Origin: a virus
Lineage: Duplodnaviria > Heunggongvirae > Uroviricota > Caudoviricetes
Length of the DNA stretch: 64,000 bases
IMG/VR virus record: IMGVR_UViG_3300032782_000004
Reading direction: 5' to 3' (one strand)
The position numbers were made by a program, and so were the translations under genes. The notes under the pieces were generated by a model. It worked only from the letters and a program-made list of their open reading frames with translations. It ran no database searches and had not been told where the DNA came from. This document shows, one piece after another, positions 8,918 to 60,533 of the stretch; position 1 is the stretch's first letter; each line of letters begins with the position of its first letter.

Positions 8918-10246
8918 TCAGGAGGCCGAGGCAGTCGGCTTCATGATCTGCGGCATGTTGTTTTCGCAGTAGGCCTTCCAGCCACCGGGCATTTCCCAGC
9001 CCTTGATCTTGATTCCGAGCTTCAAGATGCCGCCCTTGAAGACCTCGCGGCAGACGCCGACAGACTGCGGCACGAGCACCGGCGTCGCGTCGAGGGTCTG
9101 CTCGAGCATCGTGTTGACGCCACCGGCGACGATGGCCCCCGCAGTCGGAGTACCGGGAGTCGCCGGAGCGGGGAGCACGGCCGTCGTGCAGAGCAGGTTC
9201 TCGTCGGGCGAGATGTTCGAGCCGAGCGGATCGTTGTTGATCGAAACCGCCTCGAGCATGAGCGCCTGATGCACGGCGTCCTGTACCATGAACAGCATCC
9301 CGATGGGAATGCCGCGTTCGAGGAAACAAGGGCTCTCGATCGGGCGGTACATCTGACCGCGACAACCGTATCCTTGCCACCGGAGGCCGCCCCAGGTGAC
9401 GGGCGCGAGATCGAAGTCGCGCGTCGGGTGGAAGATACCGACGTTGTTCGTCGCGCTCCCGCCGTTGACGCTGCCGACTCGACGGAAGTTGACGGGCAGG
9501 AAGATCGTCGCCGATCCCTTCGAGCGGTATGTCGCGTTGACCGCGGCGACGAACTCGATGATGGCGATCTCGCTCGTCCCGCTTGCTTCGGCGTCGGCGA
9601 ACGAACCGAAGTACGACACGTCGGCGGCGATCTCGTTGAGGATGAGTTCACGTTGCGAGGTCTTCCACTGGAACTGGTAGGCGTTGATGAAGTTCCAGCC
9701 CGCGCGCCACACGTCGCCGCCGAAGATGAAATCGGCGGGCGTGAAGTTCGAACCGTCGGCGAGCACCTGAGTGCTCATCGCGCGATTGGTGAGATCGTTG
9801 ACGGTGAACACGTCGGGCGACGGCGGGGGGTTCACCGTCGTTGTCGGCGCGTTGAACGCATTTCCGATCGTCGAGAAGCTCATCGGCTCGTGAAAGACGT
9901 GTACGCCTACGCCCTGAGCGAGGATATCCGTCTGCAAGATGCCGTTGATGAGGAACGTCGAGTCGATCGACGCGACGCCTGGCACGCTGGAGCTGCCCGA
10001 GAGCAGATTCACCGTATCGCCCAGCGTGCTGATCGCCTCCTCGGCAGTGAGCGGCAACGGGATGGTCCAAACGACCTCCTCGATGACCGGGATGTTGCCG
10101 AAGGAGCAACGCAGACACTTGTCCGCACCGCGCAGATCGCCCGGCGCCGCGCCGAGACCGAACTGGAGACGGCGGGTCTTGTCTTGCGAATCGCCGAACC
10201 GCGCCGTTCTCCGGCCGACGATGCTTCTGTTGGTATTTCGAGCCAT
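8918..10246 (-). CDS. hypothetical virion structural protein (possible major capsid protein)
   Basis: 442-aa ORF, the largest non-repetitive ORF in the structural block, with composition typical of a globular protein. The capsid assignment rests on size and position only. Confidence 0.3.
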   Translation of the reverse strand: MARNTNRSIVGRRTARFGDSQDKTRRLQFGLGAAPGDLRGADKCLRCSFGNIPVIEEVVWTIPLPLTAEEAISTLGDTVNLLSGSSSVPGVASIDSTFLINGILQTDILAQGVGVHVFHEPMSFSTIGNAFNAPTTTVNPPPSPDVFTVNDLTNRAMSTQVLADGSNFTPADFIFGGDVWRAGWNFINAYQFQWKTSQRELILNEIAADVSYFGSFADAEASGTSEIAIIEFVAAVNATYRSKGSATIFLPVNFRRVGSVNGGSATNNVGIFHPTRDFDLAPVTWGGLRWQGYGCRGQMYRPIESPCFLERGIPIGMLFMVQDAVHQALMLEAVSINNDPLGSNISPDENLLCTTAVLPAPATPGTPTAGAIVAGGVNTMLEQTLDATPVLVPQSVGVCREVFKGGILKLGIKIKGWEMPGGWKAYCENNMPQIMKPTASAS

Positions 10247-12118: not shown

Positions 12119-12321
12119 ATCGCAAGAAATCGTGTGATCGCCGTGCGCCTATTCTGAGCGTCGTCGTACAAATCCGACTTCGAATGTAAACAACAAGAGA
12201 AGCGCGTATTTACACGCACGCGCTCGAGCACGATCGCCAATCGAACAACGTTTCGAAACGATCGCGCTAAAACGGTTGCGGCGTACTACGTTCGTCGCAC
12301 AACCGATTAACTGTTGTCCTA

Positions 12322-13503
12322 CTACTTGATGCTCGGATAAAGCAGATCGAGGAGCGTTGGAGCTCGAGCGAGTCCCGTTTGATCGGGCGCGCCGCTCATT
12401 CCGACGAAATCACCCTCGCCACGCTCTTTCGCTTCTTGTCCCGGCTCTACCCACCATTCGCGCGCGTGCGGCGGGACCCGCCCGATCGGCAGCTTCGTCG
12501 TGCCGTCCATTTTCACCCAGTCGCCGAGCTCGTCTTCGAAGGCGATGAACACGTGCGACGGCACGTCGTAGGGCTCGTGGTGACTGCTGCCGATGATCAT
12601 CGCGGCGATTCCGATCGACATCATCGCTGCGGCAAGTGTGATGGACATATCGTCGCAGTTGGAGACGGTTACGTCATGCTCTGGCAAATAGACGTAGCGA
12701 TCATCGGTCGAAATGTCCCAGCAAGAAACTCGTCCGACAGAACGTTCGATCGCCTTGACGGCGGCAGATGTGCCTAGCTTCTCTCGTTGCCCGATACGCC
12801 ACAGCGGAAACTTCCCCGCGCCGCCGTGCTCCATGCTAGTCGCTATGCGTTTTGGTTGAAGCAGGACATCGCCTTCACGAAGCTCCTCGACGAGAATTCG
12901 ATCGAAACTTTCTAGACGCTTGTACGCGGGTTGACATTGGACTTGATCGCAGCGGCCACCGTGCTTGCACTGGCCCACGTAGACCTTGTGGTTTTTCGTC
13001 AAATAGACGGTCGAACCGGTAGTGAGGTCGATCGCATCTACGTCAAGTTTACCCTTCGCCCATTTTTGCGTGATGGTCGACCATCGGTCTTTACCCCAGA
13101 TGCGTTCGCCTACTTTGATTTTCTCGATCGGAACGAATTCGAAGTCATCTCGAAGTAAAAGCGTCCTTTCCGGAAAACAGTCGCCGCCGATGATGCAAAG
13201 TCCACCCTCGTCGAGGCACAACGTCTGTTCGGGCGTTGCCATGAACTCGCCCATCATCGGATCGGCGATGTACGGCACTTTCTGCCTGAACGCGTCGAGT
13301 ATGGCTTGCGCTTTCTCGCGGTGCCCTTTCCGCGAAGCGCCGGCCTTGTCGAGGACCTGCGTCACCCAAGCACGGAGTCGCGGGCTCATGCGCCCCTTGA
13401 ACGCGCGCTCGGCGACTTCCTTCAAAGACAGCTTCGCGCCTTTGCCTCCAGCCGGATGCGGACGAGTATCGGTGCGTACGTTCTCTACGGGTTTGTCGAT
13501 CAT
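12322..13503 (-). CDS. transglutaminase-like cysteine peptidase interrupted by a mini-intein (Hint domain)
   Basis: ATG at 13501-13503 overlaps (ATGA) the stop of the 13500..14597 gene. After excising residues 103-282 the product reads ...EGGL-CDDMSITLAAAMMSIGI, i.e. a G-x-C-x-D-x-S TGase catalytic motif. Downstream HVFIAFE...GDWVKMD matches the His/Asp motifs. The listed 737-aa ORF upstream of 13503 is an out-of-frame artefact. Confidence 0.55.
   Translation of the reverse strand: MIDKPVENVRTDTRPHPAGGKGAKLSLKEVAERAFKGRMSPRLRAWVTQVLDKAGASRKGHREKAQAILDAFRQKVPYIADPMMGEFMATPEQTLCLDEGGLCIIGGDCFPERTLLLRDDFEFVPIEKIKVGERIWGKDRWSTITQKWAKGKLDVDAIDLTTGSTVYLTKNHKVYVGQCKHGGRCDQVQCQPAYKRLESFDRILVEELREGDVLLQPKRIATSMEHGGAGKFPLWRIGQREKLGTSAAVKAIERSVGRVSCWDISTDDRYVYLPEHDVTVSNCDDMSITLAAAMMSIGIAAMIIGSSHHEPYDVPSHVFIAFEDELGDWVKMDGTTKLPIGRVPPHAREWWVEPGQEAKERGEGDFVGMSGAPDQTGLARAPTLLDLLYPSIK
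12658..13197 (-). other. mini-intein (Hint domain, no endonuclease) inserted at the catalytic Cys of the TGase-like peptidase
   Basis: Begins Cys (CIIGGDCFPERTLL). Contains a TxxH-like block (VYLTKNHKVYV). Ends ...VYLPEHDVTVSN followed by +1 Cys. About 180 aa. Confidence 0.45.
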
Positions 13504-14597
13504 CGTCGTTTTCGTTTTCGCTTGCGTGTAGCGAGATAGACGACGCCGCCGAGTGCGCCGGCTCCAATCAATCCGATGCTCGCCACCGCGGCGGTGCTGA
13601 GTTCCGTTTTTTGCGGCGGCTTCACGGCTACGAGGGGCGGGGGCGCTTGAGGGGGCAGTGCGTTCGGCAGCGTTGACGGTAGCGGCGCATGCGTCGCGCA
13701 CGCGGCGGGCGCGGGCGCTCCGAGCACCTTCGTGAGCGCGGTTGCCGTCGCCTGCTCGTAATTGCCGGTATCGACGGGGACAGCGGGGGTTTGCGACGAA
13801 TTCCACGCCGTCTTGAACGCGTGCACGGTCGTGTTGACGAGTGTTCCTGATTGCGCGACCGATTGGCAGTAGTTCGGATCGGCGCCAATGGCGCTGGCCG
13901 CCGCTTGCGCGGTAGTCGAGATGTTCCACGGGAACGTGTCGGTGCTCGCCGGGAGCGGCTGTTCGCCCGCGTCGCCGTAGAACGCTTGAAGCGCGACGCG
14001 CGCGCTCGCGATCGCGGACGACAGCGAATTTTGCACATCGAGGCGCGCTTGAGTCACCGCCGTCTGATCGCCGGCTGTGATCGCCGCGATCAAATCGGTG
14101 TTGCGCTTGAGAGCCGTTGCGGTGCGATTTTGCACGTCTTCCGCGCTCGCCGTCGCGACGGTGTTGGATCCGCTGGCGGCTTCCTTGACGGAGGCGTCGA
14201 TGGTCGTGACGGTGTCCGGCACCGCCGCCGCAAACGATTGATCGTCCATGGACGAAAGCGTCCCGACCAGCATCGTCGATTGATCGAGCGTCGCGTAGTC
14301 GCCGAGGATCCCCGCTGCCGCGGCGCCGAGCATCGACGGCGTCACGCCGTCGGCGTATGGAAGTGCTACGAAATACGCTTTGGGGCGCATGTCGAGGCTG
14401 CCATCGAACCACTTCGACGGCAGATTCAGCGTCTCGCCGGCGACGAGCGACTTGAAAGAAGCAAAACCGTTCGGATAGACGACCGATCCCTTGTGCGGAT
14501 TCGCGTGCACCAGATCGATGGCGCACTTCGGGCATCCGGCAAATTCGATTGCGATCTTTGCCGGGCTGTCGCCGGGCCGAACGACGTACGATCTCAT
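13500..14597 (-). CDS. LysM-like N-terminal domain protein with C-terminal TM anchor and KRKRKRR tail
   Basis: N-terminus YVVRPGDSPAKIAIEF...DLVHANP...LVAGETLNLP is LysM-like. C-terminus IGLIGAGALGGVVYLATRKRKRKRR. Paralogous architecture to 4693..5832. Confidence 0.5.
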   Translation of the reverse strand: MRSYVVRPGDSPAKIAIEFAGCPKCAIDLVHANPHKGSVVYPNGFASFKSLVAGETLNLPSKWFDGSLDMRPKAYFVALPYADGVTPSMLGAAAAGILGDYATLDQSTMLVGTLSSMDDQSFAAAVPDTVTTIDASVKEAASGSNTVATASAEDVQNRTATALKRNTDLIAAITAGDQTAVTQARLDVQNSLSSAIASARVALQAFYGDAGEQPLPASTDTFPWNISTTAQAAASAIGADPNYCQSVAQSGTLVNTTVHAFKTAWNSSQTPAVPVDTGNYEQATATALTKVLGAPAPAACATHAPLPSTLPNALPPQAPPPLVAVKPPQKTELSTAAVASIGLIGAGALGGVVYLATRKRKRKRR

Positions 14598-14650: not shown

Positions 14651-14842
14651 TCAAGCGATCTCGCGCTGCGGCTGATGCACTATCGGACGTCCGTCGCCGA
14701 ACGCTAAACGGATCCCTTCGCCCTCGACCGCCATTTTCACGAGCGGCGTCTTGAGCAATTCGGCGAGCTTGGCGGCGTACTCGTACGCTTGGCGATCATT
14801 CGCCGCGTCCACTTCGATGCTCATCATGACGCGGTAGCGCAT
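14651..14842 (-). CDS. small hypothetical protein
   Basis: 63-aa ORF between two larger co-directional genes. Confidence 0.3.
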   Translation of the reverse strand: MRYRVMMSIEVDAANDRQAYEYAAKLAELLKTPLVKMAVEGEGIRLAFGDGRPIVHQPQREIA

Positions 14843-25182: not shown

Positions 25183-26331
25183 TCATTGCGCCAACCTATT
25201 CCCAAACCTATCCACCTCGTAAAGCACCGTCCCTTTGCGAAATGCGACTTTGTGCGGGTATTCTGGCGAGCTATCCCAAGTATGCAAATCTATTATTGCA
25301 ATTTCGATCGCGACATACCTATCTTTGGCTGTACTGCGAAACTCGTCGGCGAAGTAGGGCCGCGCGACAGCATGAAATTTCCCTGATCCGCATTCCTCTT
25401 TGTCCGGAGCCCATCTGGGATGCTCAAGCGTCCCCCCTGGCTTCCACACCGTCTCGTTCGGCGTGTTTTCCTGTGTCTTCCAGTCTCTCGATACGCGCTT
25501 GTACAGGACGACTTTTTCTGCTGGCTCGATCGCATGCGCCTCTAACCATCCAGTCGTTCCGAGCGGTGTGCTCGGCTGCACGATTGTAGCGGTGGGAGAC
25601 TTGCTAGCGACCTTCGCCGTCGCGACTAACAGAATTGCTACGGCGAAGCTGAAAAGATCTATCACGGAGAACGATGAATAAACGTGAACAGCAACGGACC
25701 CCCACGCCTCGACATGCGAGGATTCCCGCGCCTCGACATGCGAGGACCCCCACGCCTCGACATGCGAGGACCCCCACGCCTCGACATGCGAGGACCCCCA
25801 CGCCTCGACATGCGAGGACCCCCACGCCTCGACATGCGAGGACTCCCACGCCACGACGTGCGAGGATTCCCGCGCCTCGACGTGCGAGGACCCCCACGCC
25901 ACGACGTGCGAGGATTCCCGCGCCTCGACGTGCGAGGACCCCCGCGCCACGACGTGCGAGGACTCCCGCGCCTCGACGTGCGAGGACCCCCGCGCCACGA
26001 CGTGCGAGGACTCCCGCGCCACGACGTGCGAGGACTCCCACGCCTCGACATGCGAGGATTCCCGCGCCTCGACGTGCGAGGACCCCCGCGCCACGACGTG
26101 CGAGGACTCCCACGCCTCGACATGCGAGGATTCCCGCGCCTCGACGTGCGAGGACCCCCGCGCCACGACGTGCGAGGACCCCCACGCCTCGACATGCGAG
26201 GATTGCGGGATCTTCGAGATCTGAAGCCTGATGTCGGGGGCGCTCCGGATTTCGATCCACGTCTCGGCATCGAAGGATGCGGGGAGCGCGTCCAATTCGG
26301 CCTGCGTATGGACTACTACAATCTTCATCAT
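25183..26331 (-). CDS. octapeptide tandem-repeat protein (SSHV[EV]A[WR][GE] x ~21) with unique N- and C-terminal domains
   Basis: ATG ATG at 26331 preceded by GAGGAG. The repeat region is translated as SSHVEAWGSSHVVARG... and is flanked by non-repetitive N-terminal (44 aa) and C-terminal (~170 aa) sequence. The other frames over the repeat lack such flanks. Confidence 0.5.
   Translation of the reverse strand: MMKIVVVHTQAELDALPASFDAETWIEIRSAPDIRLQISKIPQSSHVEAWGSSHVVARGSSHVEARESSHVEAWESSHVVARGSSHVEARESSHVEAWESSHVVARESSHVVARGSSHVEARESSHVVARGSSHVEARESSHVVAWGSSHVEARESSHVVAWESSHVEAWGSSHVEAWGSSHVEAWGSSHVEAWGSSHVEARESSHVEAWGSVAVHVYSSFSVIDLFSFAVAILLVATAKVASKSPTATIVQPSTPLGTTGWLEAHAIEPAEKVVLYKRVSRDWKTQENTPNETVWKPGGTLEHPRWAPDKEECGSGKFHAVARPYFADEFRSTAKDRYVAIEIAIIDLHTWDSSPEYPHKVAFRKGTVLYEVDRFGNRLAQ
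25697..26205. repeat. perfect/near-perfect 24-bp tandem repeat (~21 copies)
   Basis: Unit gacccccacgcctcgacatgcgag with few substitutions. Open in four reading frames. Confidence 0.85.
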
Positions 26332-27288: not shown

Positions 27289-27691
27289 CAGATTCTCTTC
27301 CACCTTTCGATCGGAGTCGCGTACGGCAGCCGGCACGTGGAGAGCTTCACGCCGCCACCGCCCTTTCCCTGCGGCAAGTTCGCGCGCACGAGCGCCTCGG
27401 CGAGCTCGGGACAAACGCTGTTTCCGATAAGTCGCACCGGCCGGCGAGCGTCTCTCGGGCCATCGCGCCGCAGAAGTGCGCCGCCGATCGCTGCGAAAGC
27501 CCAGTGGTGCCGTACAATCCGCCGCTGGCGTGGATGCCCCACCCGTGCACTTCCGTGCCGCCTCCGTTCAGACCGATGAGCGCTGCATAGACTTGCAGCC
27601 GCGTCGGCGACGGTGGAACGGCCGGTATCGGGAACTCCCACGGCGGCGAGTCGTAAAAAGGCTCGTGAAGCCCATGCGATGAGCGACGGCA

Positions 27692-30706: not shown

Positions 30707-30858
30707 CCACCTTTCCTGCGAGCGCCTTTTCCTTTTCTGCGAGCGCCTCTTCGTAGAAACGGATGATCGTTGCCCAGAACAGCGCGTCGAGGATCGCCCC
30801 TCTTTTGTGGTACGCCGACACGGCGTTTTGAGCGGCTTCTCGAAAGTTCGTTTCATGC

Positions 30859-31749
30859 TTATCCGGTTAGCGCCCAACGGACGCTCCTGATGAACGTCGC
30901 CGCAACTTGTGGGACGATGGCATTGCCATAGGCGCGCAGCTTGCCCACGCGGGCGGGTACCCCATGAGCCAGCGGGAATGTTCCGGGTTCAACTGGCCGC
31001 CGCTTGCCGTCTTGGCAGTCGACCCACTCGCAATTACCCCAAGCACTTGGCGCGGCAACGGCCTGCCCTTCGTGCCGTACTGCTCCGCGTCCGTTTTCCG
31101 ACCTCTGTCCGAGCGATGGTCCCTTGCCGCTGGGGTCGCCCACGAAGAAAGGCTCGCGAGTGTGTTCAGATCGTGTCCGCGGGTCCCGCGCTGAACCTCT
31201 TTCAGAGACCCCTCCAACGTGCGGACGCCCTTGTCCGCGTCCGACTTTCGAGGAGTAGGCCACGAAGTAGAGTCTTTGCCTGATGTGCGGGGCACCGACG
31301 CCCGCAGCGCACAGATCCGACGCCCCGACGGCGTAGCCCGCTCCTTCCAGGTCAGCGTAAACAATGTCGAGCCACCGGAGCCCGTCAGGGCTCGCAACCT
31401 GTTCTCCAAAGACGACTGGAGGTCGACACTGGCGGATGAGCTCGAACCAGACAGGCCATAGGTGACGCTCGTCGGTGAATCCTTTCCTGCGCCCGCTTTG
31501 TGAGAACGGTTGACACGGACAGCTTCCGGTCCACACCGGCTCGTCGTCTGGCCATCCTGCGAGACGGAGCGCGTAGGACCATCCGCCGAGTCCCGCGAAA
31601 AAGTGAGCCTGTTGCCGCCCCGCGAGATCGGAGGCGGCGAGTTCTTGGATGCTACGCGGATCGATTGCGCCGGTGGCGATGTGACCCGCACGCTCGAGGT
31701 TTTGGAGCCATTCGACGGCATAGGGTTCGTTTTCGTTATAGAAGTTCAT
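30859..31749 (-). CDS. DNA (cytosine-5)-methyltransferase
   Basis: Motif I FFAGLGGW, motif IV SCPCQPFSQSG, motif VI FGEQV, motif X GNAIVPQVA. Confidence 0.75.
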   Translation of the reverse strand: MNFYNENEPYAVEWLQNLERAGHIATGAIDPRSIQELAASDLAGRQQAHFFAGLGGWSYALRLAGWPDDEPVWTGSCPCQPFSQSGRRKGFTDERHLWPVWFELIRQCRPPVVFGEQVASPDGLRWLDIVYADLEGAGYAVGASDLCAAGVGAPHIRQRLYFVAYSSKVGRGQGRPHVGGVSERGSARDPRTRSEHTREPFFVGDPSGKGPSLGQRSENGRGAVRHEGQAVAAPSAWGNCEWVDCQDGKRRPVEPGTFPLAHGVPARVGKLRAYGNAIVPQVAATFIRSVRWALTG

Positions 31750-31792
31750 TGGGCGTTAACCGGATAAGCATGGTTCGTTTTATCGAGGACGC

Positions 31793-39591: not shown

Positions 39592-39802
39592 TTGCGGTCG
39601 TCATGGAGGCTTGACGATCGACATCCATCTACGACCGCGACGTGCTCGCAGTTCTGACAATTCGACCGCTGCTTGACGGTCCTTCATCCATCGCAACGCC
39701 TGTTAGAAACGATTTGGTCTTCCGACTGATAATCGTCGTCTGTCACGGCACTTCTTGCAGGCCACCCGACGAGGAGATTCACGTCGCCTTTCGCCGCCTC
39801 GG

Positions 39803-40344
39803 CTGATGATCGTCATCCGTCACGGCGTCTTCTACGAGAAAAGCCCCACCGACGTCTTCGCCTCCGAGGGGGTTTGACGATCGCCATCCGTCACAGCGTC
39901 TCCCGCGAGTCGTGAATTCGGCGAGATGGGCGGCGTCAAACGTGGTCTGACGATCGCCATCCGTCACAGCGTCTCCCGCGAGCGCGGGAACGCCGCCGTA
40001 TTCGGCCCCGCACAGGATCTGACGATCGCCATCCGTCACAGCGTCTCCCGCGAGCACGCAAGCGAAAACGAAAACGACGATGATCGACACTGACGATCGC
40101 CATCCGTCACAGCGTCTCCCGCGAGGTTGCGAATCTCCATTGAGATTGTTGGAGATGGAGCTACTGACGATCGCCATCCGTCACAGCGTCTCCCGCGAGT
40201 CGGGGGGCTTGCGGCGCGAGGAGGACCCGTCCTTCGCTGACGATCGCCATCCGTCACAGCGTCTCCCGCGAGCGCGGGAACGCCGCCGTATTCGGCCCCG
40301 CACAGGATCTGACGATCGCCATCCGTCACAGCGTCTCCCGCGAG
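39803..40344. CRISPR. CRISPR array: eight 36-bp repeats (first degenerate) with seven 35-38-bp spacers. Further decayed repeat remnants at 39726-39761 and ~39611-39650.
   Basis: Repeat CTGACGATCGCCATCCGTCACAGCGTCTCCCGCGAG at 39874, 39947, 40019, 40090, 40164, 40237 and 40309; degenerate copy at 39803. Spacers at 39839-39873, 39910-39946, 39983-40018, 40055-40089, 40126-40163, 40200-40236 and 40273-40308. Repeat decay toward low coordinates implies the leader lies on the cas-gene side, so transcription is probably on the minus strand. Confidence 0.85.
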
Positions 40345-42203
40345 GCGTCGTGTAGAAAGCCGCTGACTTCGACCTCTTGCACGTCGCTTTGCGAGCGGTT
40401 CCCCTCATCGGCTAGGGAACGAGCCGTATCTCCACGGAATTGCGGGGAACCGTTCTTTGCGGCACCGAGCCGCTCGATCTCTGAGACAGGCGTCGTGATG
40501 GATGAAGATCGGCCACGCTGAACGTGGCGCTCCGGGGGATCCCCGGTTGCCGGACCGATACGGGGCCGTGAGGGAGAGTTGCCTCGCCCTCCGTGCCGTC
40601 CGTTTGTCACGGCCGTTGTCCCCCTTTCGGGGGGTTTCGAACCCGCGCTCCGCGGGCCCGCTTCGCCGGTATCGCTACCGGAAGAGTATTGTAAAAGGTT
40701 TGCCGCGGCGTTGTCGTCACGGTCGTCGATGTGCTCGCAAGAAGGGCACTGGAAATTCGGATATCCAGGCGAAGTCTCGCGCACGGTTAGGCACAACGCG
40801 CAGCGCTTTGTTACCGGCTCGTCTTGAGGCGCTTCCTCGAGACGGCCGCCGATCCATTTCATCTTATAAGCCACACGACGGCGAACATCGCCCATACGCG
40901 CGGCGTGGACCATCGGCGCCAAGCGATTGCGCGTTTGGGCGTCGTTCGTGAGGTTGCGCGAGAGCATAGAATGCACCGAACCGGCTGGGCGCATGCGTAC
41001 GATTTCGACGCCGGTGTCGACAATCTGCCGAACGCTCTTGCCTACGATGTCGTCTCGAAGATCGGTGATCCGCGCGTGATAGTGCGCAACGCGCCGCTTG
41101 GCTTCGAAAAAACCGGCGCTCTGGGCACGCGTCGCAATGCCCGCTCGATAGCGTCGCGCCATCCGACGCTCCCACAGCTTTCGGAGACGCTCGAACCGCG
41201 CGATGCGATCGTCGTCGCGGAGGCCAAGATGGCGGATGTTCGTCGAGCGTTCGCCTTGCGTCGCGACGGATAGGTTCACGACGCCGACCTCGACTCCAGC
41301 CACTCGGCCTTTCACGCGCGGTACCGGACGATCTCGCAGAGCGCGACCGGGCCCTCGTGCTTGCGGCGTCGGATCGGGTACTTCCGCTCGTAGCGCGATG
41401 TACCAGCGGCCGTCTCTCTCTGAGAGACCGAGAGCGATCGCTTTGCCGCCGTAGGGAAAGTGATGCGATTTCTCTTGCGTGACGGGCAAGTAATCACGCT
41501 CTTTCAAGACAACTTCGCCGATCCCCGGGATCGTCACGGTCCGTGACGTGATGCGGATCGGGTTCGGCTGGTCAACGTGGTAAGCCGCGTGTCGCCGGCC
41601 GCGAAAACGGGGGCGTCCCGCGCGCTCGTACCGCCCGGCTTTGATATGTTCGAAGAAATGCTTCCAGCCGTCCTCGACGTCGATAACGGCTTCGCGAATC
41701 GCGAACGAGGAGAGCTCGGTGAGCCAGCCGAACCGCTCCGGCTGTTCGTCGCGTACGAAGGCGACCTGGGAATACCAGTCGATCGACGTGGCGGCAAAAT
41801 CCGGGATCGCAGCGCCGGATGCGGGCCGGTAACGCACACGCTTTTGCGGCGTCCAGGCGACCGACGCGTGTTGACCAAAAAGCGCCAAAAGCCCGACGAC
41901 GACGGCGGCGCCGAGAGTCACCTGCGGCGCATCCTGCTCGATACGAGGCGTACGGACGTCGACCGGCGCGCCACGAGTGAGCGCAGCCAAAGCGTAGCCG
42001 AGCATGCACGCCGCTTCGCCGCCGGCGCAGTCATGTCCGGCGAGAGCGCGCGCGCCGCGCGCAATGCCGCGAGCGGCGTCGAGCTCGATCCAACGCTCGA
42101 GTACCCAGTTGTGCGCGACGCGAGCGCCAGCGACGTGTTTCGCGAGCGCACGCCGCTGTTCAGCGGTCGGATCAATCTCGGTCTTGTACGCGCGAAGGAT
42201 CAT
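40326..42203 (-). CDS. TnpB/Cas12-like RuvC-domain RNA-guided effector (compact type V CRISPR effector candidate)
   Basis: N-terminus MILRAYKTEIDPTAEQRRALAKHVAGARVAHNWVLERW is typical of OrfB_IS605/TnpB. RuvC-I-like GVEVGVVNLSVAT (Glu in place of Asp), RuvC-II-like TGVEIVRM, zinc finger CALC...CPSC, RuvC-III DDRDDNAAANL. ~130-aa low-complexity C-terminal tail. The ORF terminates inside the leader-proximal CRISPR repeat. Confidence 0.7.
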   Translation of the reverse strand: MILRAYKTEIDPTAEQRRALAKHVAGARVAHNWVLERWIELDAARGIARGARALAGHDCAGGEAACMLGYALAALTRGAPVDVRTPRIEQDAPQVTLGAAVVVGLLALFGQHASVAWTPQKRVRYRPASGAAIPDFAATSIDWYSQVAFVRDEQPERFGWLTELSSFAIREAVIDVEDGWKHFFEHIKAGRYERAGRPRFRGRRHAAYHVDQPNPIRITSRTVTIPGIGEVVLKERDYLPVTQEKSHHFPYGGKAIALGLSERDGRWYIALRAEVPDPTPQARGPGRALRDRPVPRVKGRVAGVEVGVVNLSVATQGERSTNIRHLGLRDDDRIARFERLRKLWERRMARRYRAGIATRAQSAGFFEAKRRVAHYHARITDLRDDIVGKSVRQIVDTGVEIVRMRPAGSVHSMLSRNLTNDAQTRNRLAPMVHAARMGDVRRRVAYKMKWIGGRLEEAPQDEPVTKRCALCLTVRETSPGYPNFQCPSCEHIDDRDDNAAANLLQYSSGSDTGEAGPRSAGSKPPERGTTAVTNGRHGGRGNSPSRPRIGPATGDPPERHVQRGRSSSITTPVSEIERLGAAKNGSPQFRGDTARSLADEGNRSQSDVQEVEVSGFLHDASRETL

Positions 42204-46146: not shown

Positions 46147-46442
46147 GGCTCGTCGTCCTCGTCGGGTTCCCGGCGACGTCGACTGCGGCCTTTGCCGTCG
46201 CCGAATGTTTTCTCGTACTCCTCGAGCATCGCGTCGGCGTATTTGGTGGCGATCTCACACATGTCCTCGACGATCTCGTCGTTGTCATGTGTGTCGGGCG
46301 GCGCGTACCGCGCCAGCGCGTCGTGCGTCCACGCCACCCAGAGTTCCGAAGCTTGCTTCACAGAGACGGGCATTTCCGATCTTCTTTCGTCGCGTCGACT
46401 GTCGACTGTCGACAGATTGCAGCGCTTGTCGATCGCTGTCAA
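46143..46442 (-). CDS. hypothetical protein
   Basis: 99 aa, ATGA-coupled to the downstream gene. Confidence 0.3.
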   Translation of the reverse strand: MTAIDKRCNLSTVDSRRDERRSEMPVSVKQASELWVAWTHDALARYAPPDTHDNDEIVEDMCEIATKYADAMLEEYEKTFGDGKGRSRRRREPDEDDEP

Positions 46443-46548
46443 CCGAGGATCGACCGCTAGTCCCGGATGGTGGAGTCGAACCGCCGCACGCCTCGACCGC
46501 CGACGGGCTGCTCACCGAAGTGTTCCGGGGCGGTTGTGCTTCCGGGGT

Positions 46549-46905
46549 TCACGACAATGTCAAAGCTGAGCAGGCATCCTCGATAATGTAGAGTTCCGCG
46601 TCTTCCGGCAAGTATTGCGACAAGATGATCAGGGCGAAGTCGGCGCCGAGCTGCGCATCACAAAACTCTTGTATCAACTCGTACCCGCCGGGTTTGCCGT
46701 TACCCGTACCGTCAAATATGAGCGGGCCGGGCCCTTTCAGTTCCGGCCCCCCAATGAAACGCGATGGAGGAGGCGGCGTGCAAAATTGCACGAAACGTCC
46801 GGTCAAGCGGTTCTCGATGATAACGAAACGTCTGTGCTCGATCGGCGATTGCGCCAAGCGGTCGAGCGCCTCGACGATCGCGCCCTTGGATTCCTTGAGA
46901 ATCAT
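46549..46905 (-). CDS. hypothetical protein
   Basis: 118 aa. Confidence 0.3.
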   Translation of the reverse strand: MILKESKGAIVEALDRLAQSPIEHRRFVIIENRLTGRFVQFCTPPPPSRFIGGPELKGPGPLIFDGTGNGKPGGYELIQEFCDAQLGADFALIILSQYLPEDAELYIIEDACSALTLS

Positions 46906-47282
46906 TCTAGCGTGACTTTTTCGAGTTTCGAAGGCCTGTAGCTTGGCCCCAACGCATTCGAACGCGAGCGACGGGCAACGTCGCTGGAGCCTTTTTCGGT
47001 TTCGGGGCTTTCTTTTTCATCGTTGCTCATCGGCGATCAAGAGACCTCGCCGCTTGTTGTCGCGCGCAAACGCGATGTCGCCGCGCGCCGAAAACCACGC
47101 CGCGATGCGATTGAAAAAACTTGCGATGGCGTACAAGACGCGAGCTTGCCCGCGGGGATAAAGCCGATTGCCCAGAATCCCTTTTTCCCAGCGCATGCAT
47201 TCGTCGCACCAAGTATGTGCTTCTGACGGCCGCGGTCCGACAAACGCGATTGCCGAGTCCTTCGTAAGCGGGTGCGTCGTGA

Positions 47283-47693
47283 TCATCGGGGACGCCCAGA
47301 ACTCGCGAAGCGCTCTTGAGCTTCGACGGCCAAATCAAGACACTCGAGGACATCGAAGCCGAGGTCGTCGATCCAACGGACGGTCGAGAAGATCAAGTTG
47401 CCGAGTTCTTTCTTCAGTTCTCGAATCAACTGATCACGATCGGGGCGCCCTTCCGCGACGCGCTCGATGAATGCGACGAAATCGGGCTCGAAATCGTCGC
47501 CTACGCGAACGCTCGCGTCGCGAGCGACGCGCGCGATATCACCGACTCCAACCGTCAATCTGACGGCTATCTCGGTGAGCGAGTGCCTCGTAGCGCCCCA
47601 GATTTGGCGCCCTTGAGCACGCAAAGCGCTAAGCCCAGCGTGCACTTGCTCACGCACCGGAGGATGTTTCCGCAAATCGACTTTCATGTTCAA
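47283..47693 (-). CDS. MazG-like nucleotide pyrophosphohydrolase
   Basis: TEIAVRLTVGVGDIARVARD and ELGNLIFSTVRWIDDLGFDV match MazG helices (E-x-x-E-L-x-E ... E-L-G-D-x-L). Confidence 0.45.
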   Translation of the reverse strand: MNMKVDLRKHPPVREQVHAGLSALRAQGRQIWGATRHSLTEIAVRLTVGVGDIARVARDASVRVGDDFEPDFVAFIERVAEGRPDRDQLIRELKKELGNLIFSTVRWIDDLGFDVLECLDLAVEAQERFASSGRPR

Positions 47694-48463
47694 TCACGTT
47701 TCCCTGTTTGCGTCGTTGAGGGGCGCCAGTCGCAGCCCCCGTACTTGCGACGTTTTTCCAAGACGTACGATACGAATTTGCCGATGGCATCGTCGATGCT
47801 TTTTGCAGGTGTCGTGGCCCCTCTTGCCGCGTCTTCGCCGCAGTCCCAAGAGCTCTCACCTTTTCCCGGAAACGGTACCGGTTCGAGCATTTCGATTTGA
47901 CACCGCACGATCGTTTTGGAGAACCATCGAGGACGGCGCCATGAAGCCTCTTCGAGCATCGCGCATCCGAGATAAGCGCGCTCCGGCATCGGCACTTCGA
48001 CGAAGTGGTATTCGAGCGGGCGCGATTCGTGACGTTGAGCGCCGAGAAAAAAATCGAGGATATCGAAGCTGCCGTCACGCCATCGCGGCGTTGAACTACG
48101 CCACGAATGCGGATCCGCCCATGTACGCCACCGGATCGCCCAGTGATACGCACCGACGCTCAGTTCTCGCGCCTCGCCGGCGCGCGAGAGACGACGCAAG
48201 TCGAAGGACAGATAAATCGCACCGAAACCGAATTCCGCGTGAACGTCGATGCCGTCCTCATCATGTCGAACGCCGGCACCGAGACGGGGGGCGCCGAGCG
48301 CCCATTCGACGCCGATCGAATCGTCACTCTCTCGCCAATGCAGCCAAGCACGTCCGTGCCATGGAAAGCCGCTTGGAGCTACGCCATCGGCGCCGCGACG
48401 CTTCTCATTCAAGTTTTGCCAGTGCCCCCAGACGAGTCGGCCCCGATCTTTCCGTTCACTCAT
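47690..48463 (-). CDS. hypothetical protein (Trp-rich)
   Basis: 257 aa, coupled to flanking genes. Confidence 0.35.
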   Translation of the reverse strand: MSERKDRGRLVWGHWQNLNEKRRGADGVAPSGFPWHGRAWLHWRESDDSIGVEWALGAPRLGAGVRHDEDGIDVHAEFGFGAIYLSFDLRRLSRAGEARELSVGAYHWAIRWRTWADPHSWRSSTPRWRDGSFDILDFFLGAQRHESRPLEYHFVEVPMPERAYLGCAMLEEASWRRPRWFSKTIVRCQIEMLEPVPFPGKGESSWDCGEDAARGATTPAKSIDDAIGKFVSYVLEKRRKYGGCDWRPSTTQTGKRD

Positions 48464-51561: not shown

Positions 51562-52998
51562 GTGTGGCAAACGCCGCCGCCGCTACGGAAAAAGGATAAA
51601 GGCAGATCGATGCGCAAGATCGAGCGATTGACACCCGAACAAGATCGGCAGCTTCCTCTCTGGTACGCAGAATGGCTAGCAGTAGGACGCGCGACCGGCG
51701 AATCCGACAAGTCGCGTACTGAGATTACGATCTCGAAGATGTACGCCCGCATCGGACAGAAAGAGCCGGGCTACATCTGGCTCGACTCGCCCGCCGCGTA
51801 CTGCATCGCGATTGAGATCTTGCGAGCGACAGCGAGCAAGTCGCTCTGGCCGCAGCTCCGGTCGCAGCTCCGGTCGCAGCTCTGGTCGCAGCTCCGGTCG
51901 CAGCTCTGGTCGCAGCTCGAGTCGCAGCTCGGGTCGCAGCTCCGGTCGCAGCTCGGGTCGCAGCTCGGGTCGCAGCTCCGGTCGCAGCTCTGGTCGCAGC
52001 TCGAGTCGCAGCTCGGGTCGCAGCTCCGGTCGCAGCTCGAGTCGCAGCTCGAGTCGCAGCTCGAGTCGCAGCTCCGGTTGCAGCTCCGGTTGCAGCTCTG
52101 GTCGCAGCTCTGGTCGCAGCTCCGGTCGCAGCTCGGGTCGCAGCTCGTGTCGCAGCTCCGGTCGCAGCTCCGGTCGCAGCTCGGGTCGCAGCTCGAGTCG
52201 CAGCTCCGGTCGCAGCTCGGGTCGCAGCTCGAGTCGCAGCTCCGGTCGCAGCTCGGGTCGCAGCTCGAGTCGGACGCGAGAGCAGCGGCCCATCAATGCT
52301 TTTGGGGCCAGCACGAAGCTGGGTGGATCGCGTTCTATCTGTTCTGCCGCGAAATCGTCCGCGCGAAATATCCGGCGGAATGGTCCGAGGTGCTCGACTG
52401 GTGGGCAGATCTCACGCGCTCCTGTTTCTGGTGGTGGCCGTACAAGGGTATCGTGTTCGTGTCCGCTCGACCGGCGACGTTGCGCCTAGATGCAGCGGGA
52501 CGGCTTCATTCTGAGCGCGATGCCGCGATGTCGTTCAACGACGGGTACGCGCTACATGCGTGGCATGGGACGGTCGTTCCCGAGAAGGTCATCGTCGCGC
52601 CCGATTCTTTTTGCAGCGACGAGATTCGCGCGCTCGACAATACCGAGGTGACGCGCGCCCTGGCAGAGCGTCTCGGATGGGCGAAGTTTCTGGAAAAGCT
52701 CGGCGCAACACCGCTCAATTCCTGGACGGACCCGCGCACCGGGCTTGCCTACGAGCTTCTCGAAACGAACCTTGGCGGGGAGCCTGCGCGCTTCGTCAAG
52801 AAGCAGTCGTCGGTTTTGAAAGACGGCTCACAGCCGTTCTACATGGAACCAGTGCCCCGCGAATGCGCGACTGCGCAAAGCGCTCGCAAGTGGCAGGCCA
52901 TGGCGGCGTTTCTCGATGACGGCGATGAGCGCGGCGCACTGGAGCTCGCCGCCCATTGCAACAGGGATCCGGAGCTCGTTTACCAGTTCGAGGCATAG
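51562..52998 (+). CDS. tetrapeptide tandem-repeat protein (SQL[RWGE] x ~35) with unique N- and C-terminal domains
   Basis: The repeat-region translation SQLRSQLWSQLRSQLG... is flanked by a ~95-aa N-terminal and a ~240-aa Trp/Cys-rich C-terminal domain. Confidence 0.45.
   Translation: MWQTPPPLRKKDKGRSMRKIERLTPEQDRQLPLWYAEWLAVGRATGESDKSRTEITISKMYARIGQKEPGYIWLDSPAAYCIAIEILRATASKSLWPQLRSQLRSQLWSQLRSQLWSQLESQLGSQLRSQLGSQLGSQLRSQLWSQLESQLGSQLRSQLESQLESQLESQLRLQLRLQLWSQLWSQLRSQLGSQLVSQLRSQLRSQLGSQLESQLRSQLGSQLESQLRSQLGSQLESDARAAAHQCFWGQHEAGWIAFYLFCREIVRAKYPAEWSEVLDWWADLTRSCFWWWPYKGIVFVSARPATLRLDAAGRLHSERDAAMSFNDGYALHAWHGTVVPEKVIVAPDSFCSDEIRALDNTEVTRALAERLGWAKFLEKLGATPLNSWTDPRTGLAYELLETNLGGEPARFVKKQSSVLKDGSQPFYMEPVPRECATAQSARKWQAMAAFLDDGDERGALELAAHCNRDPELVYQFEA
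51848..52272. repeat. 12-bp tandem repeat (~35 copies)
   Basis: Unit tcgcagctccgg with third/ninth-position variants (ctcgag, ctctgg, ctcggg). Open in several frames. Confidence 0.8.
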
Positions 52999-58637: not shown

Positions 58638-60533
58638 ATGCCGCAGGATGCGTCCGCGCTGGAGCGCGAGCCGTACGATCGCGTGTTGGTATTAGGCCAG
58701 CCGCATCACGGCAAAATGTTGCCGAATTCCGAACCTGTGCTTACGCCTACAGGTTGGAAACCGATGGGCCGCCTGATCGTCGGCGAATACGTGATTGGAT
58801 CTAACGGGTACCCGACAAAAGTCGTTGCCGTGTACCCGCACGACCACAAGCCGATCGTCAGGCTGACAATGGATTGTGGTGCGACAGCGCGTTGTGGCCT
58901 CGAGCATCTCTGGTTCACGACTACTCGCCACGAATTGCGACGCGGTAGTCGACGGTACCCTCCAGGCACGCCACATCACATGCGCGGTACGGTAAAGCAA
59001 GAGTTTGTGGGTTGGGGTGAAGGAAGCGTCAAGACAACCCAAGAGCTGATCGAGACGCTCGACGCACGTCACTATATACCGCGAGTCGCACCTATCATGT
59101 ATGCGGACGTGGAGCTCCCGCTCGATCCATATTTGCTCGGGCTCGTTTTAGGTGACGGCTCGATAACAGGTAGCGGGCAGATTACACTCACGAAACCGGA
59201 CGAAGACATACTCGACGCCTTCGAACGTGAGGTCAGAGCTGTAGGCGACACGCCTGTACGCTATGATAACACCAAGTGCAACTACGTTCGTGTGAACGGC
59301 ACGAATCTAAAGAAGTGTTTGAATGCGCTCAACTTGTACGGAGCACGTTCGTCGACGAAATTCATACCGGAAATATTCTTGCGAGCGCCGCCTAAAGCGC
59401 GCCTCGCGCTGTTGCGTGGTCTCTGTGATACCGATGGGCATGCTGTCAAGAACATCTGTAGCGTTGGTCACGCGCACGACGGTTTGAGCCTAACGGCTGA
59501 GTTCTCGACGACATCGGAGCGACTTTGCGATGGCGTTATCGAATTAGCGCGTTCGCTCGGCAGCCGTGCGAGGGCGCGCTACAAACCGGAGCCGTACTCT
59601 CAAAGCGGCCCCGGACAACCGGCTTGGTGCGTGGACATCTCTTTTGAAGACGGCACATGTCCATTTTCTCTCCCGCGAAAAGCAAATCTGTGGGTTGGCG
59701 GTGATCGTGAAAAGCTCTACCGCCAACGGCTCGAGAAGATCGAGCCGGCAGGCGAAGAGGAATGCACGTGTATTACAGTCGAAGCTGAAGACGGGTTGTT
59801 CGTAACTAACAACTACATCTTGACACACAATTCGACAAGTGTGGTCGCTAGTGCTGCCAAAGCATTCGGTATGGGCTACGTGATCAACTGCGGGAAAAAA
59901 ACGGGGCTCCTCGAGGCCGCTCGTCGATGCGACCGCTTCAAATGGGATCTCGTTCGCGACGAGGTTCAAATGGAGGACGCGCTCAAAGAAGCGCGTCGAG
60001 GCTCCAAAGACGGCGTTTACAAATGGGTCGCCATCGACGATTACAACCTCTACGCGAGCTGGCTTGAGGTCGCGCTCGAAGATCAAACGCGCAACGCCAA
60101 AGGCGAAGCCGACGGGCGCCGCTTTTGGCGCGAGTACCGAAAGCGGCTCGTAAACATCCTCGTTCGATGCTTCGACATCAAAGCGCATTTCTATTGCATC
60201 TCACATTACATCGAGACGGGCGGCGGCCTCATCGACGGCCAGACCGAGAAGGTTGGCGTCGACGTCGCGCCGCTTTTCGGCGGCGCCGCGCGCAAGGAAA
60301 TCCCCGGCATGTTCGCCGATATCGTGTTTATGGCGCCAAGCTCGAAGAGCCAAAAAGAGCGCAGCTTTTACATCAACCCGATCGGCGTCTACGGCCCGAG
60401 CTGTCTGAGCTTGCCTGAAACGCGCGAGATCGACGCCGACGTCGGCGCGCTCCACGACGCTTTCATGAAAGCCGGCAAATCCGGCAAGTCAGAGAATCAA
60501 AACACCGGCAAGCCCGGCTATCACAGGAAGTGA
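58638..60533 (+). CDS. AAA_24 (Sak4-like) RecA-fold ATPase interrupted in its P-loop by an intein carrying a LAGLIDADG homing endonuclease
   Basis: N-extein ...RVLVLGQPHHGK and C-extein STSVVASAAKAFGMGYVINCGKKTG...YKWVAIDDYNLY splice to a canonical Walker A GQPHHGKST plus a hhhhDD Walker B. Followed by a DUF669-like gene, as in Sak4 modules. Confidence 0.6.
   Translation: MPQDASALEREPYDRVLVLGQPHHGKMLPNSEPVLTPTGWKPMGRLIVGEYVIGSNGYPTKVVAVYPHDHKPIVRLTMDCGATARCGLEHLWFTTTRHELRRGSRRYPPGTPHHMRGTVKQEFVGWGEGSVKTTQELIETLDARHYIPRVAPIMYADVELPLDPYLLGLVLGDGSITGSGQITLTKPDEDILDAFEREVRAVGDTPVRYDNTKCNYVRVNGTNLKKCLNALNLYGARSSTKFIPEIFLRAPPKARLALLRGLCDTDGHAVKNICSVGHAHDGLSLTAEFSTTSERLCDGVIELARSLGSRARARYKPEPYSQSGPGQPAWCVDISFEDGTCPFSLPRKANLWVGGDREKLYRQRLEKIEPAGEEECTCITVEAEDGLFVTNNYILTHNSTSVVASAAKAFGMGYVINCGKKTGLLEAARRCDRFKWDLVRDEVQMEDALKEARRGSKDGVYKWVAIDDYNLYASWLEVALEDQTRNAKGEADGRRFWREYRKRLVNILVRCFDIKAHFYCISHYIETGGGLIDGQTEKVGVDVAPLFGGAARKEIPGMFADIVFMAPSSKSQKERSFYINPIGVYGPSCLSLPETREIDADVGALHDAFMKAGKSGKSENQNTGKPGYHRK
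58716..59831 (+). other. intein (372 aa) with LAGLIDADG endonuclease; class-3-like features
   Basis: Block A-like MLPNSEPVLTPTGW. Block B ...CGLEHLW (Trp at B12). LAGLIDADG motifs LLGLVLGDGSI and LALLRGLCDTDGH. Block F ECTCITV (Cys at F4). Block G ILTHN followed by +1 Ser. Position 1 is Met. Confidence 0.55.

Follow-up and report, generated by a model that had tools for sequence, protein, structure and literature searches.

The systems closest to the one described here are type V-M, the phage-borne Cas12r, the TldR repressors, virus-borne mini-CRISPR arrays, and the TnpB proteins with their type V-U4 relatives. The system in question is a TnpB-like effector gene with a co-directional CRISPR array, found in a 64,000-nt stretch of DNA (the window) from a virus of the Caudoviricetes (IMG/VR record IMGVR_UViG_3300032782_000004). 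One of its spacers, spacer 4, perfectly matches a gene junction on the same molecule. Self-matching spacers are normally lethal or quickly lost. This one sits beside an effector with a non-canonical RuvC triad and has been kept through later acquisitions, and both give real support to the binding-only effector that a first-pass annotation of the sequence had listed among its alternatives. The locus is rated as a type V system that is restricted to phages, derives from TnpB, has a degenerate RuvC, and gains self-matching spacers recurrently.

Type V-M is composed of single effectors of ~600 aa that are found on mobile elements, work with crRNA only, and usually have no adaptation genes (PMC10442227, PMC11656645). 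Cas12m2 has a non-canonical HDD triad, does not cleave double-stranded DNA, silences by tight binding, and uses a 5'-TTN protospacer-adjacent motif (PAM) (PMC10442227). The present system shares the compact effector, the non-canonical triad, and the absence of adaptation genes, and V-M is the best model for its probable working mode. To our knowledge, self-matching spacers have not been described for V-M. The triad differs, being E/R-P/D and not H-D-D, and the carrier is a large phage and not a plasmid. By sequence the effector does not group with Cas12m: phmmer gives E=0.61, and a profile comparison gives E=2e-6 over the zinc-finger stretch only. In Foldseek, the Cas12m2 structures 8hhl and 8pm4 hold ranks 20-23, behind TnpB and Cas12f.

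Cas12r of the Thermus Lalka phages is a TnpB-like protein of ~560-625 aa with a short array next to it, no adaptation genes, and no tracrRNA; arrays of close isolates differ cas-proximally and share the distal spacer, and host-mediated acquisition has likewise been proposed (bioRxiv 10.64898/2026.04.20.719267). The likeness is one of locus build, compared by published architecture. The Cas12r RuvC is active (D238A abolishes interference), and its spacers target host integrative elements (bioRxiv 10.64898/2026.04.20.719267). In contrast, the window effector has a non-canonical triad, and its species is itself matched by two of the spacers.

TldR proteins are derived from TnpB, have an inactivated RuvC, and repress a gene by guide-directed DNA binding; some are prophage-encoded (PMC10705468). 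The effector resembles them in the partial loss of its RuvC residues (RuvC-II absent, RuvC-I changed from D to E). TldR is said to use one conserved omega-RNA-like guide against a conserved host promoter (fliC, oppA), to be C-terminally shortened, and to have no CRISPR array. The phage system instead has a regular, fast-changing array and a self-guide that lacks conservation, and it is a gene junction and not a promoter that this guide targets. It is not TldR, because an array is present and there is no conserved guide or promoter target.

Virus-borne mini-CRISPR arrays are found in viruses that differ from their relatives at the protospacer. Their spacers match close viruses, and the arrays, which serve in conflicts between viruses, come without an effector and use that of the host (PMC11656645). 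The present phage, by contrast, encodes an effector, and its own site is identical to the spacer.

The closest systems by sequence and fold are the IS200/IS605 and IS607 TnpB proteins and the type V-U4 / RdCas12n-type effectors. Cas12n, an active nuclease, has an A-rich PAM and a tracrRNA. The family profile scores RdCas12n (9j09, Foldseek rank 43) at 3.5e-26 versus 1e-38 to 4e-43 for TnpBs, and by these comparisons the effector is nearer to TnpB than to solved Cas12n. Unlike a TnpB locus, this one has no transposon ends, no TnpA, and a CRISPR array in place of the omega RNA. It also differs from TnpB and Cas12n in a ~100-aa REC insertion, a 110-aa C-terminal tail, and the lack of a canonical D-E-D. 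Inactivated or rearranged TnpB/Cas12 branches have been catalogued, and the system may be one of the unnamed V-U branches of that catalogue (PMC10691335).

The plus strand of the window at the spacer 4 protospacer, tgtcgatcatcgtcgttttcgttttcgcttgcgtg, is the exact reverse complement of spacer 4 over 35/35 positions. The perfect match claimed on first reading holds no mismatch. Not one of 100 dinucleotide-preserving shuffles produced such a match, even at three mismatches, and 0 are expected by chance. Spacer 4 is flanked on both sides by perfect 36-nt repeats of a regular array. The protospacer flanks are cgggtt (5') and tagcgag (3'), as previously read. The site spans T R K R K R K R R and the stop of the upstream target gene, then M I D of the downstream gene, both on the minus strand. 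The translational-coupling junction proposed earlier is thus present, with its stop, its ATGA overlap of stop and start, and its first three codons; the nine upstream codons that went with it are in fact eight full codons plus 2 nt of the ninth. Seven other contigs of this phage species, the sibling strain included, have the protospacer without any change, and no variant is seen in the 8 contigs, which come from at least 6 samples.

The remaining spacers of the window array have no match in the window or in ~16 kb of additional same-phage genome, which agrees with the manual scan of the first-pass annotation. Spacer targets were sought with 43 spacers from 6 arrays in the window, the fetched loci, and GenBank phages; relatives were covered over ~20 kb around their arrays. 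IMG/VR was scanned for exact matches with merged IUPAC patterns of S2, S3, S5, S6, Sa, Sb, Sc, and L033 s2/s5. Spacer 2 has a partial match at 14757-14778 (+), within a 63-aa ORF upstream of the target operon. It pairs at 20/22 positions there and at 22/37 over its full length, and is probably due to chance. Table 1 lists the features.

Table 1. Positions of the target operon, the CRISPR locus, and other genes in the window.
Feature	Position	Strand	Basis or remark
Upstream target gene, 365 aa	13500..14597	-	Translation; gene call in public assemblies
Downstream target gene, 393 aa, transglutaminase-like cysteine protease with mini-intein	12322..13503	-	
Mini-intein insertion, ~174 aa, C...SN/C	12659..13178	-	Protein comparison and genome alignment gap
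Terminator-like hairpin after protease gene	12200..12225	-	Consensus scan; number equals shuffle expectation (weak)
Protospacer of spacer 4	13494..13528	+	Exact 35/35; plus strand corresponds to the predicted guide (non-target strand)
TT, candidate T-rich PAM	13492..13493	+	Flank TCTACGGGTT followed by TGTCG
Second self-protospacer	27438..27473	-	35/36 in window; 0 expected by chance
Trailer with S1 and degenerate fossil repeats	39605..39873	-	Common to all strain variants
CRISPR array, seven 36-nt repeats and the six spacers between	39874..40344	-	Same array in a second assembly
Spacer 4	40055..40089	-	Fourth from trailer; three newer units leader-side
TnpB-like type V effector, 625 aa	40326..42203	-	Pfam, NCBIfam, PADLOC, Foldseek
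RuvC-III position, Asp496 (DRDDN), acid retained	40716..40718	-	Alignments
RuvC-II position, Arg405-Pro406, catalytic Glu expected	40986..40991	-	Profile alignment; no carboxylate
RuvC-I position, Glu305 (GVEVGV), catalytic Asp in TnpB/Cas12	41289..41291	-	Alignments to ISDra2 TnpB, profile, and family columns
Tail fibre, collagen-like, 1194 aa			PHROG 5e-59
Endolysin-like protein, PG-binding			Window gene; family search
Helicases SNF2, PIF1, RecD-type			Window genes
VapE primase, RadC, PD-(D/E)XK nuclease, C5 methylase			Window genes

The effector belongs to the TnpB side of the type V proteins. Its Pfam domains are HTH_OrfB_IS605 and Cas12f1-like_TNB, its NCBIfam matches are guided_TnpB (6e-35) and IS607_TnpB (1e-31), and its best PADLOC matches are Cas12u4 (3e-39), then Cas12f. 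The AlphaFold (AF2) model has a pLDDT of 78. In a Foldseek search with it, the ISFba1/ISDra2 TnpB structures (8iaz, at 8e-21, and 8h1j) are closest, followed by Cas12f, while Cas12p, Cas12m2, and RdCas12n rank lower. The architecture is that of type V, with a TnpB/Cas12 fold made up of an N-terminal WED/REC part, a split RuvC, and a zinc-finger TNB, the last with CxxC...CxxC at residues 468-489. Two conserved patches, SxQFRxDTA and DRSQT, mark the low-complexity tail of 110 aa. Homologues of ~600 aa at 40-57% identity number 26, the longest of their contigs being 84-115 kb, and three additional ones are on 121-140-kb IMG/VR viral contigs; the contigs of these ~30 relatives are phage-like. Among 185,579 bacterial and archaeal species genomes, no relative exceeded 31% identity.

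The RuvC site departs from the canonical triad. The catalytic Glu of 8iaz and 9yyg aligns to R405, which is invariant in the family. The neighbouring residue 406 is Glu in 16/28 aligned relatives and Pro in the window effector, and no family member shows the full D-E-D triad. The acids at RuvC-I and RuvC-III co-vary, occurring as E...D, as D...E (the P0020-P0026 subclade), or as E...E (L033, L034); D-D is never seen. This pattern suggests a constrained but non-canonical metal site. Judged from its sequence and by analogy with Cas12m2 and with the inactivated or rearranged TnpB/Cas12 branches, the effector is most likely bind-only or strongly attenuated.

The array consists of repeats of the sequence CTCGCGGGAGACGCTGTGACGGATGGCGATCGTCAG in reading direction, which start at 39874, 39947, 40019, 40090, 40164, 40237, and 40309. 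From the leader, the spacers are S7 (identical to S3), S6, S5, S4, S3, and S2, followed by S1. A repeat scan found one further contig in the JGI metagenomes and none in IMG/VR. In 7/7 loci (window, L005, L008, L007, L032, L033, L034) the array follows the 3' end of the effector gene directly and runs in its direction. The effector TGA stop falls inside GTGAC of the first repeat (window 40326-40328, L007 11807-11809, L008 ~9646-9648). Because the ORF stays open to the first repeat, there is no separate leader between gene and array; because its stop lies inside that repeat, the array is in the immediate 3' region of the effector transcript.

Reading of the guides on the minus strand, that is, in the direction of the effector, is supported by three independent lines that agree, and the earlier suggestion of this orientation is borne out. 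The first is the co-orientation in the seven loci. The second is polarity: the distal end, with S1 and the fossil repeats, is common to all strain variants, and their differences lie at the effector-proximal end. L052 has the sibling array with one more spacer added next to the effector, a snapshot of polarised spacer acquisition. The third is the repeat itself. Its 3' 20 nt form a hairpin, UGACG-loop-CGUCA, one base before the spacer, which is kept in four divergent arrays, unlike the 5' part, which drifts among them; the layout is that of the Cas12 5' handle. In this orientation the spacer 4 guide would read 5'-UGUCGAUCAUCG...-3', identical to the window plus strand. The crRNA would be antisense to the target-operon mRNA, as the first-pass annotation had proposed, and would pair with the minus (coding, non-template) strand of the operon.

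Three other observations concern this locus. The best candidate for a tracrRNA/anti-repeat is a duplex of two collinear 9-mers at 41165-41219 (-), inside the effector ORF. It is probably a coincidence, because the homologous position in L007, L032, and L033 is not complementary to their own repeats. An exact 108-nt duplication (repeat-S3-repeat) occupies 39947-40054 and 40237-40344, and S3 is the sole variable spacer in the ENA strain. The duplicated S3 reflects either double acquisition or unequal array recombination between co-infecting strains. A promoter-like site is seen at 40717-40688; by eye, its -10 element is apparently not kept in relatives.

Spacer 4 is confined to part of the species. 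The same array (S3-S6-S5-S4-S3-S2-S1) is present in contig Ga0335083_10002559 of JGI 3300032954 (L048), and a 68-kb contig of that sample holds the intact target. In the ENA strain, which apart from its array is 99.8-100% identical to the window, S3 alone precedes S1. The sibling strain (~98-99% identical) has Sa, Sb, Sc, and Sd ahead of S1, an array reproduced in two assemblies. Neither strain has spacer 4, yet protospacer and flanks are unchanged in both. The spacer is therefore recent and lineage-specific and not a conserved regulatory guide. On its leader side are three units, S5, S6, and the second copy of S3, and because these are newer, spacer 4 was tolerated while the lineage kept replicating.

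A second self-spacer is present in the sibling lineage. The newest spacer of its array in L052 (1970-2005), GTGCGGCGCGATGGCCCGAGAGACGCTCGCCGGCCG, matches the second self-protospacer in the window and fits the sibling's own genome at 35/35 positions over guide nt 2-36 in four contigs (L058-L061). A small ORF contains that site, and relative to this gene the guide has the sense orientation, contrary to spacer 4. Self-derived spacers make up 2/11 of the distinct spacers in the arrays of this species, at unrelated sites and with no consistent strand. The two were acquired independently, in separate lineages.

In guide orientation both self-protospacers have TT directly 5' (GGGTT/TGTCG and CACTT/CTGCG, the stroke marking the protospacer start); the flank of the second is CGGCGCACTT followed by CTGCGG. 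The chance of TT at a fixed offset is p=0.044 for each and 0.002 for both. Both flanks become TTN if guide nt 1 is counted as PAM position -1. The 5' TT is a candidate PAM, from two sites only, and the orientation assigned to the guides fits it independently. PAM absence, one of the earlier explanations for survival, is less likely, since TT precedes both self-protospacers.

Both self-protospacers are also close to an indel boundary that is polymorphic among strains, lying ~316-326 bp upstream of it as transcription runs. These boundaries are that of the intein (13178) and that of a 1.37-kb block of small genes found in the sibling only (27112). With ~11 indels in 50 kb, the joint chance of both proximities is ~1-3%, and they could hint at spacer capture near recombination or break sites.

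The explanation given somewhat better than even odds is tolerated self-targeting, in which a bind-only effector is combined with spacers captured from self or sibling DNA. The match, the array polarity, the distribution among strains, the non-canonical residues, and the second self-spacer are observed; host-mediated acquisition, the PAM, a lack of cleavage, and any silencing are inferred. The phage carries its own adaptation-less miniature type V-like CRISPR locus, made up of the TnpB-like effector and the co-directional array. Host adaptation proteins, presumably Cas1-Cas2, would insert spacers at the effector side of this array, and in the infected cell the phage DNA itself would be an abundant spacer donor. 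In this reading spacer 4 is a genuine spacer captured from the phage's own genome or from a co-infecting sibling; either could be the donor, because both carry the identical site. The effector would bind 5'-TT-flanked DNA without cutting, as Cas12m does. Self-derived guides would be non-lethal because the effector binds and does not cut, and spacer 4 would persist because the canonical RuvC triad has been lost. Self-guides landing where occupancy is harmless would survive.

Tolerated self-targeting leaves room for an effect on the target. RNA-guided occupancy of the stop/start overlap before the intein-containing protease gene could lower the output of this gene, the last in its operon, both in cis and in siblings that co-infect. 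Any such effect would be modest dampening, because RNA polymerase would arrive at the PAM-distal side of the complex, and for dCas12a a roadblock is weaker in that geometry (PMC5460296). It is conceivable that the spacer 4 guide masks the ATGA junction as an antisense RNA on the mRNA itself. Spacer 4 is not a hard-wired regulator: it is strain-specific, and the sibling has independently gained another self-spacer.

Several points weigh against this explanation. The effector keeps acidic residues at RuvC-I and RuvC-III, where D and E swap among family members, and TnpB clades with relocated catalytic residues exist (PMC10691335); for both reasons a rearranged but active RuvC site is possible. 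Tolerance could also come from DNA modification, as the phage encodes methyltransferases and glycosyltransferases. Target searches for the remaining spacers returned array self-hits only, and the PAM is read from two protospacers. The presence of the spacer 4 array and an intact target on one molecule is taken from short-read assemblies.

The rival that survives best, though unlikely, is that the self-guide has a selected function. This would be CRISPRi-like autoregulation of the timing or dose of the protease, or superinfection immunity through silencing of sibling genomes. It draws on the probably bind-only effector, on a guide that covers the stop/start overlap and would be antisense to the mRNA at the downstream start codon, and on the place of the effector as last gene in a small-gene cluster, which is consistent with pre-late expression. 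The targeting of self or sibling DNA in two lineages and the identical sites in siblings point the same way. Against it, near-identical viable strains with the same target have no spacer 4, and the two self-guides lie at unrelated sites and on opposite strands relative to transcription. Relatives have no homologous self-guide within the DNA compared, polymerase arrives in the weaker orientation, and self and sibling are indistinguishable to the guide. The same facts count against the TldR-type late-gene regulator suggested at first. Spacer 4 is absent from two ~98-100% identical strains with an identical protospacer, and it belongs to an ordinary fast-turnover array and faces polymerase in the weaker roadblock orientation (PMC5460296). 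A wider version, in which large soil phages load a nuclease-degenerate effector with own-species guides for superinfection immunity or autoregulation, is doubtful to a slightly greater degree.

An effector that is a working nuclease is improbable. Self DNA would then be modified, the required PAM would be longer than TT and missing at these sites, or the array would be silent in the spacer 4 lineage. Besides the retained RuvC-I and RuvC-III acids, about half of the family has Glu at 406, the window strain has a C5-cytosine methylase that the sibling lacks, large methyltransferase and glycosyltransferase genes lie just outside the window, and TT is no more than a candidate PAM. However, the window effector has no carboxylate at 405/406, and D-E-D occurs in no family member. 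The same 5' TT precedes the targets of two independent self-spacers, and the sibling has a self-spacer yet no methylase.

Less probable by a clear step is an assembly or population artefact, in which short-read assembly merged a spacer 4 array and an intact protospacer from different strains. The true spacer 4 lineage would then be escape-mutated, or the other strain would be the sole target of spacer 4. The sample series does contain co-occurring strains with more than 99% identity, and JGI 3300032954 has the array on a 23.9-kb contig and the target on a different one of 68 kb. Set against this are the invariance of the protospacer across contigs and samples, the 90% clusters of both target proteins, which contain only these sequences, and the contigs of 91.4 kb and 91,854 bp that hold both loci. 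A second self-spacer in the sibling lineage, with its target intact in all four contigs of that lineage, speaks against it as well. The chimeric assembly that the first-pass annotation feared is unlikely, as contigs with both loci are known; for the spacer 4 lineage the exclusion is not a formal one.

Spacer 4 as a weapon against distinct relatives is not supported, since those with a 68-72% identical protease gene match only ~12 nt of it; it can act only on its own species, where siblings and self would be equally affected, and the anti-competitor targeting once considered loses its support with this.

The target operon is made up of two overlapping genes. The upstream product has a C-terminal hydrophobic helix and an RKRKRKRR tail. 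It has no Pfam or PHROG match, even at E<=5, and its former label as a LysM gene finds no HMM support. The downstream product matches Pfam Hint (3.9e-4) and Transglut_core, and its intein-less sibling allele of 219 aa matches Transglut_core at 2.8e-5. The former intein-peptidase label is apt: a 174-aa mini-intein sits exactly at the active-site Cys (GGD-C-DDMS) of a transglutaminase-like protease. The intein is present in the window strain and absent from the ~99% identical sibling (L043 11095-11754), and it starts ~316 bp downstream of the spacer 4 protospacer. Relatives in IMG/VR have a bigger insert at the protease gene, the match spanning ~1640 bp, and five of them keep the junction architecture of basic tail and ATGA. 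RNA-guided intein homing was rejected, as alleles with and without the intein have the same target and cutting is probably beyond the effector. The protease gene is apparently the last of its transcription unit, if the terminator-like hairpin is real. Promoter and terminator scans near the targets gave nothing above shuffle expectation.

The window has a GC content of ~61% and is read as ~70% of a ~92-kb soil phage genome. It has no tRNA, no rRNA, and zero Rfam matches. Virion and lysis genes are present and cellular core genes are not, but the identification as a phage is partial, as neither capsid nor terminase was recognised within the window. Most of its proteins have no assigned family. 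Cas1, Cas2, Cas4, and integrase are absent from the 25 listed Pfam families (26 matched; 68 window ORFs). Several soil-type metagenome assemblies contain the same element. A 91,406-bp ENA contig from another sample carries both the target and the effector locus, and the exact proteins of both loci are on record for a 91,854-bp contig. Two of the assemblies match the window at 100% identity over 13.7 kb, and the ENA contig does so at 99.8-99.98% over 22 kb more.

Intein or homing-endonuclease signatures are found twice in the window. Besides the protease gene, a 631-aa ORF at 58638-60533 (+) has a LAGLIDADG homing-endonuclease domain at residues ~252-324 (Pfam 1.4e-8) and may be a second intein-containing gene. 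Two in-frame tandem repeats vary in copy number among strains. One has 24 nt x 21 copies (25696-26202, in the 382-aa ORF 25183..26331 (-)), and the other 12 nt x 36 copies (51843-52272, in ORF 51562..52998 (+)). The C5-cytosine methylase gene and a 1.8-kb block (30853-31773, 46417-48229) are present in the window and ENA strains and not in the sibling. Outside the window, next to its start, are large methyltransferase/glycosyltransferase genes of 676 and 1127 aa (L036 14183-19598), and modification of phage DNA or surface is possible.

Two independent self-spacers beside a non-canonical effector constitute natural evidence for binding over cutting in this branch of TnpB-derived effectors, which is specific to phages. 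If true, the system would be a phage-borne counterpart of the plasmid-borne Cas12m and, with a core of ~520 aa, a compact candidate for programmable DNA binding. It offers a testable system for how adaptation-less phage arrays acquire spacers and for the role of phage CRISPR systems, and also for the use of RNA-guided binding by viruses against siblings or their own genes. Deliberate loading of self-guides, if true, would be the first instance in nature of a virus that uses CRISPRi on itself.

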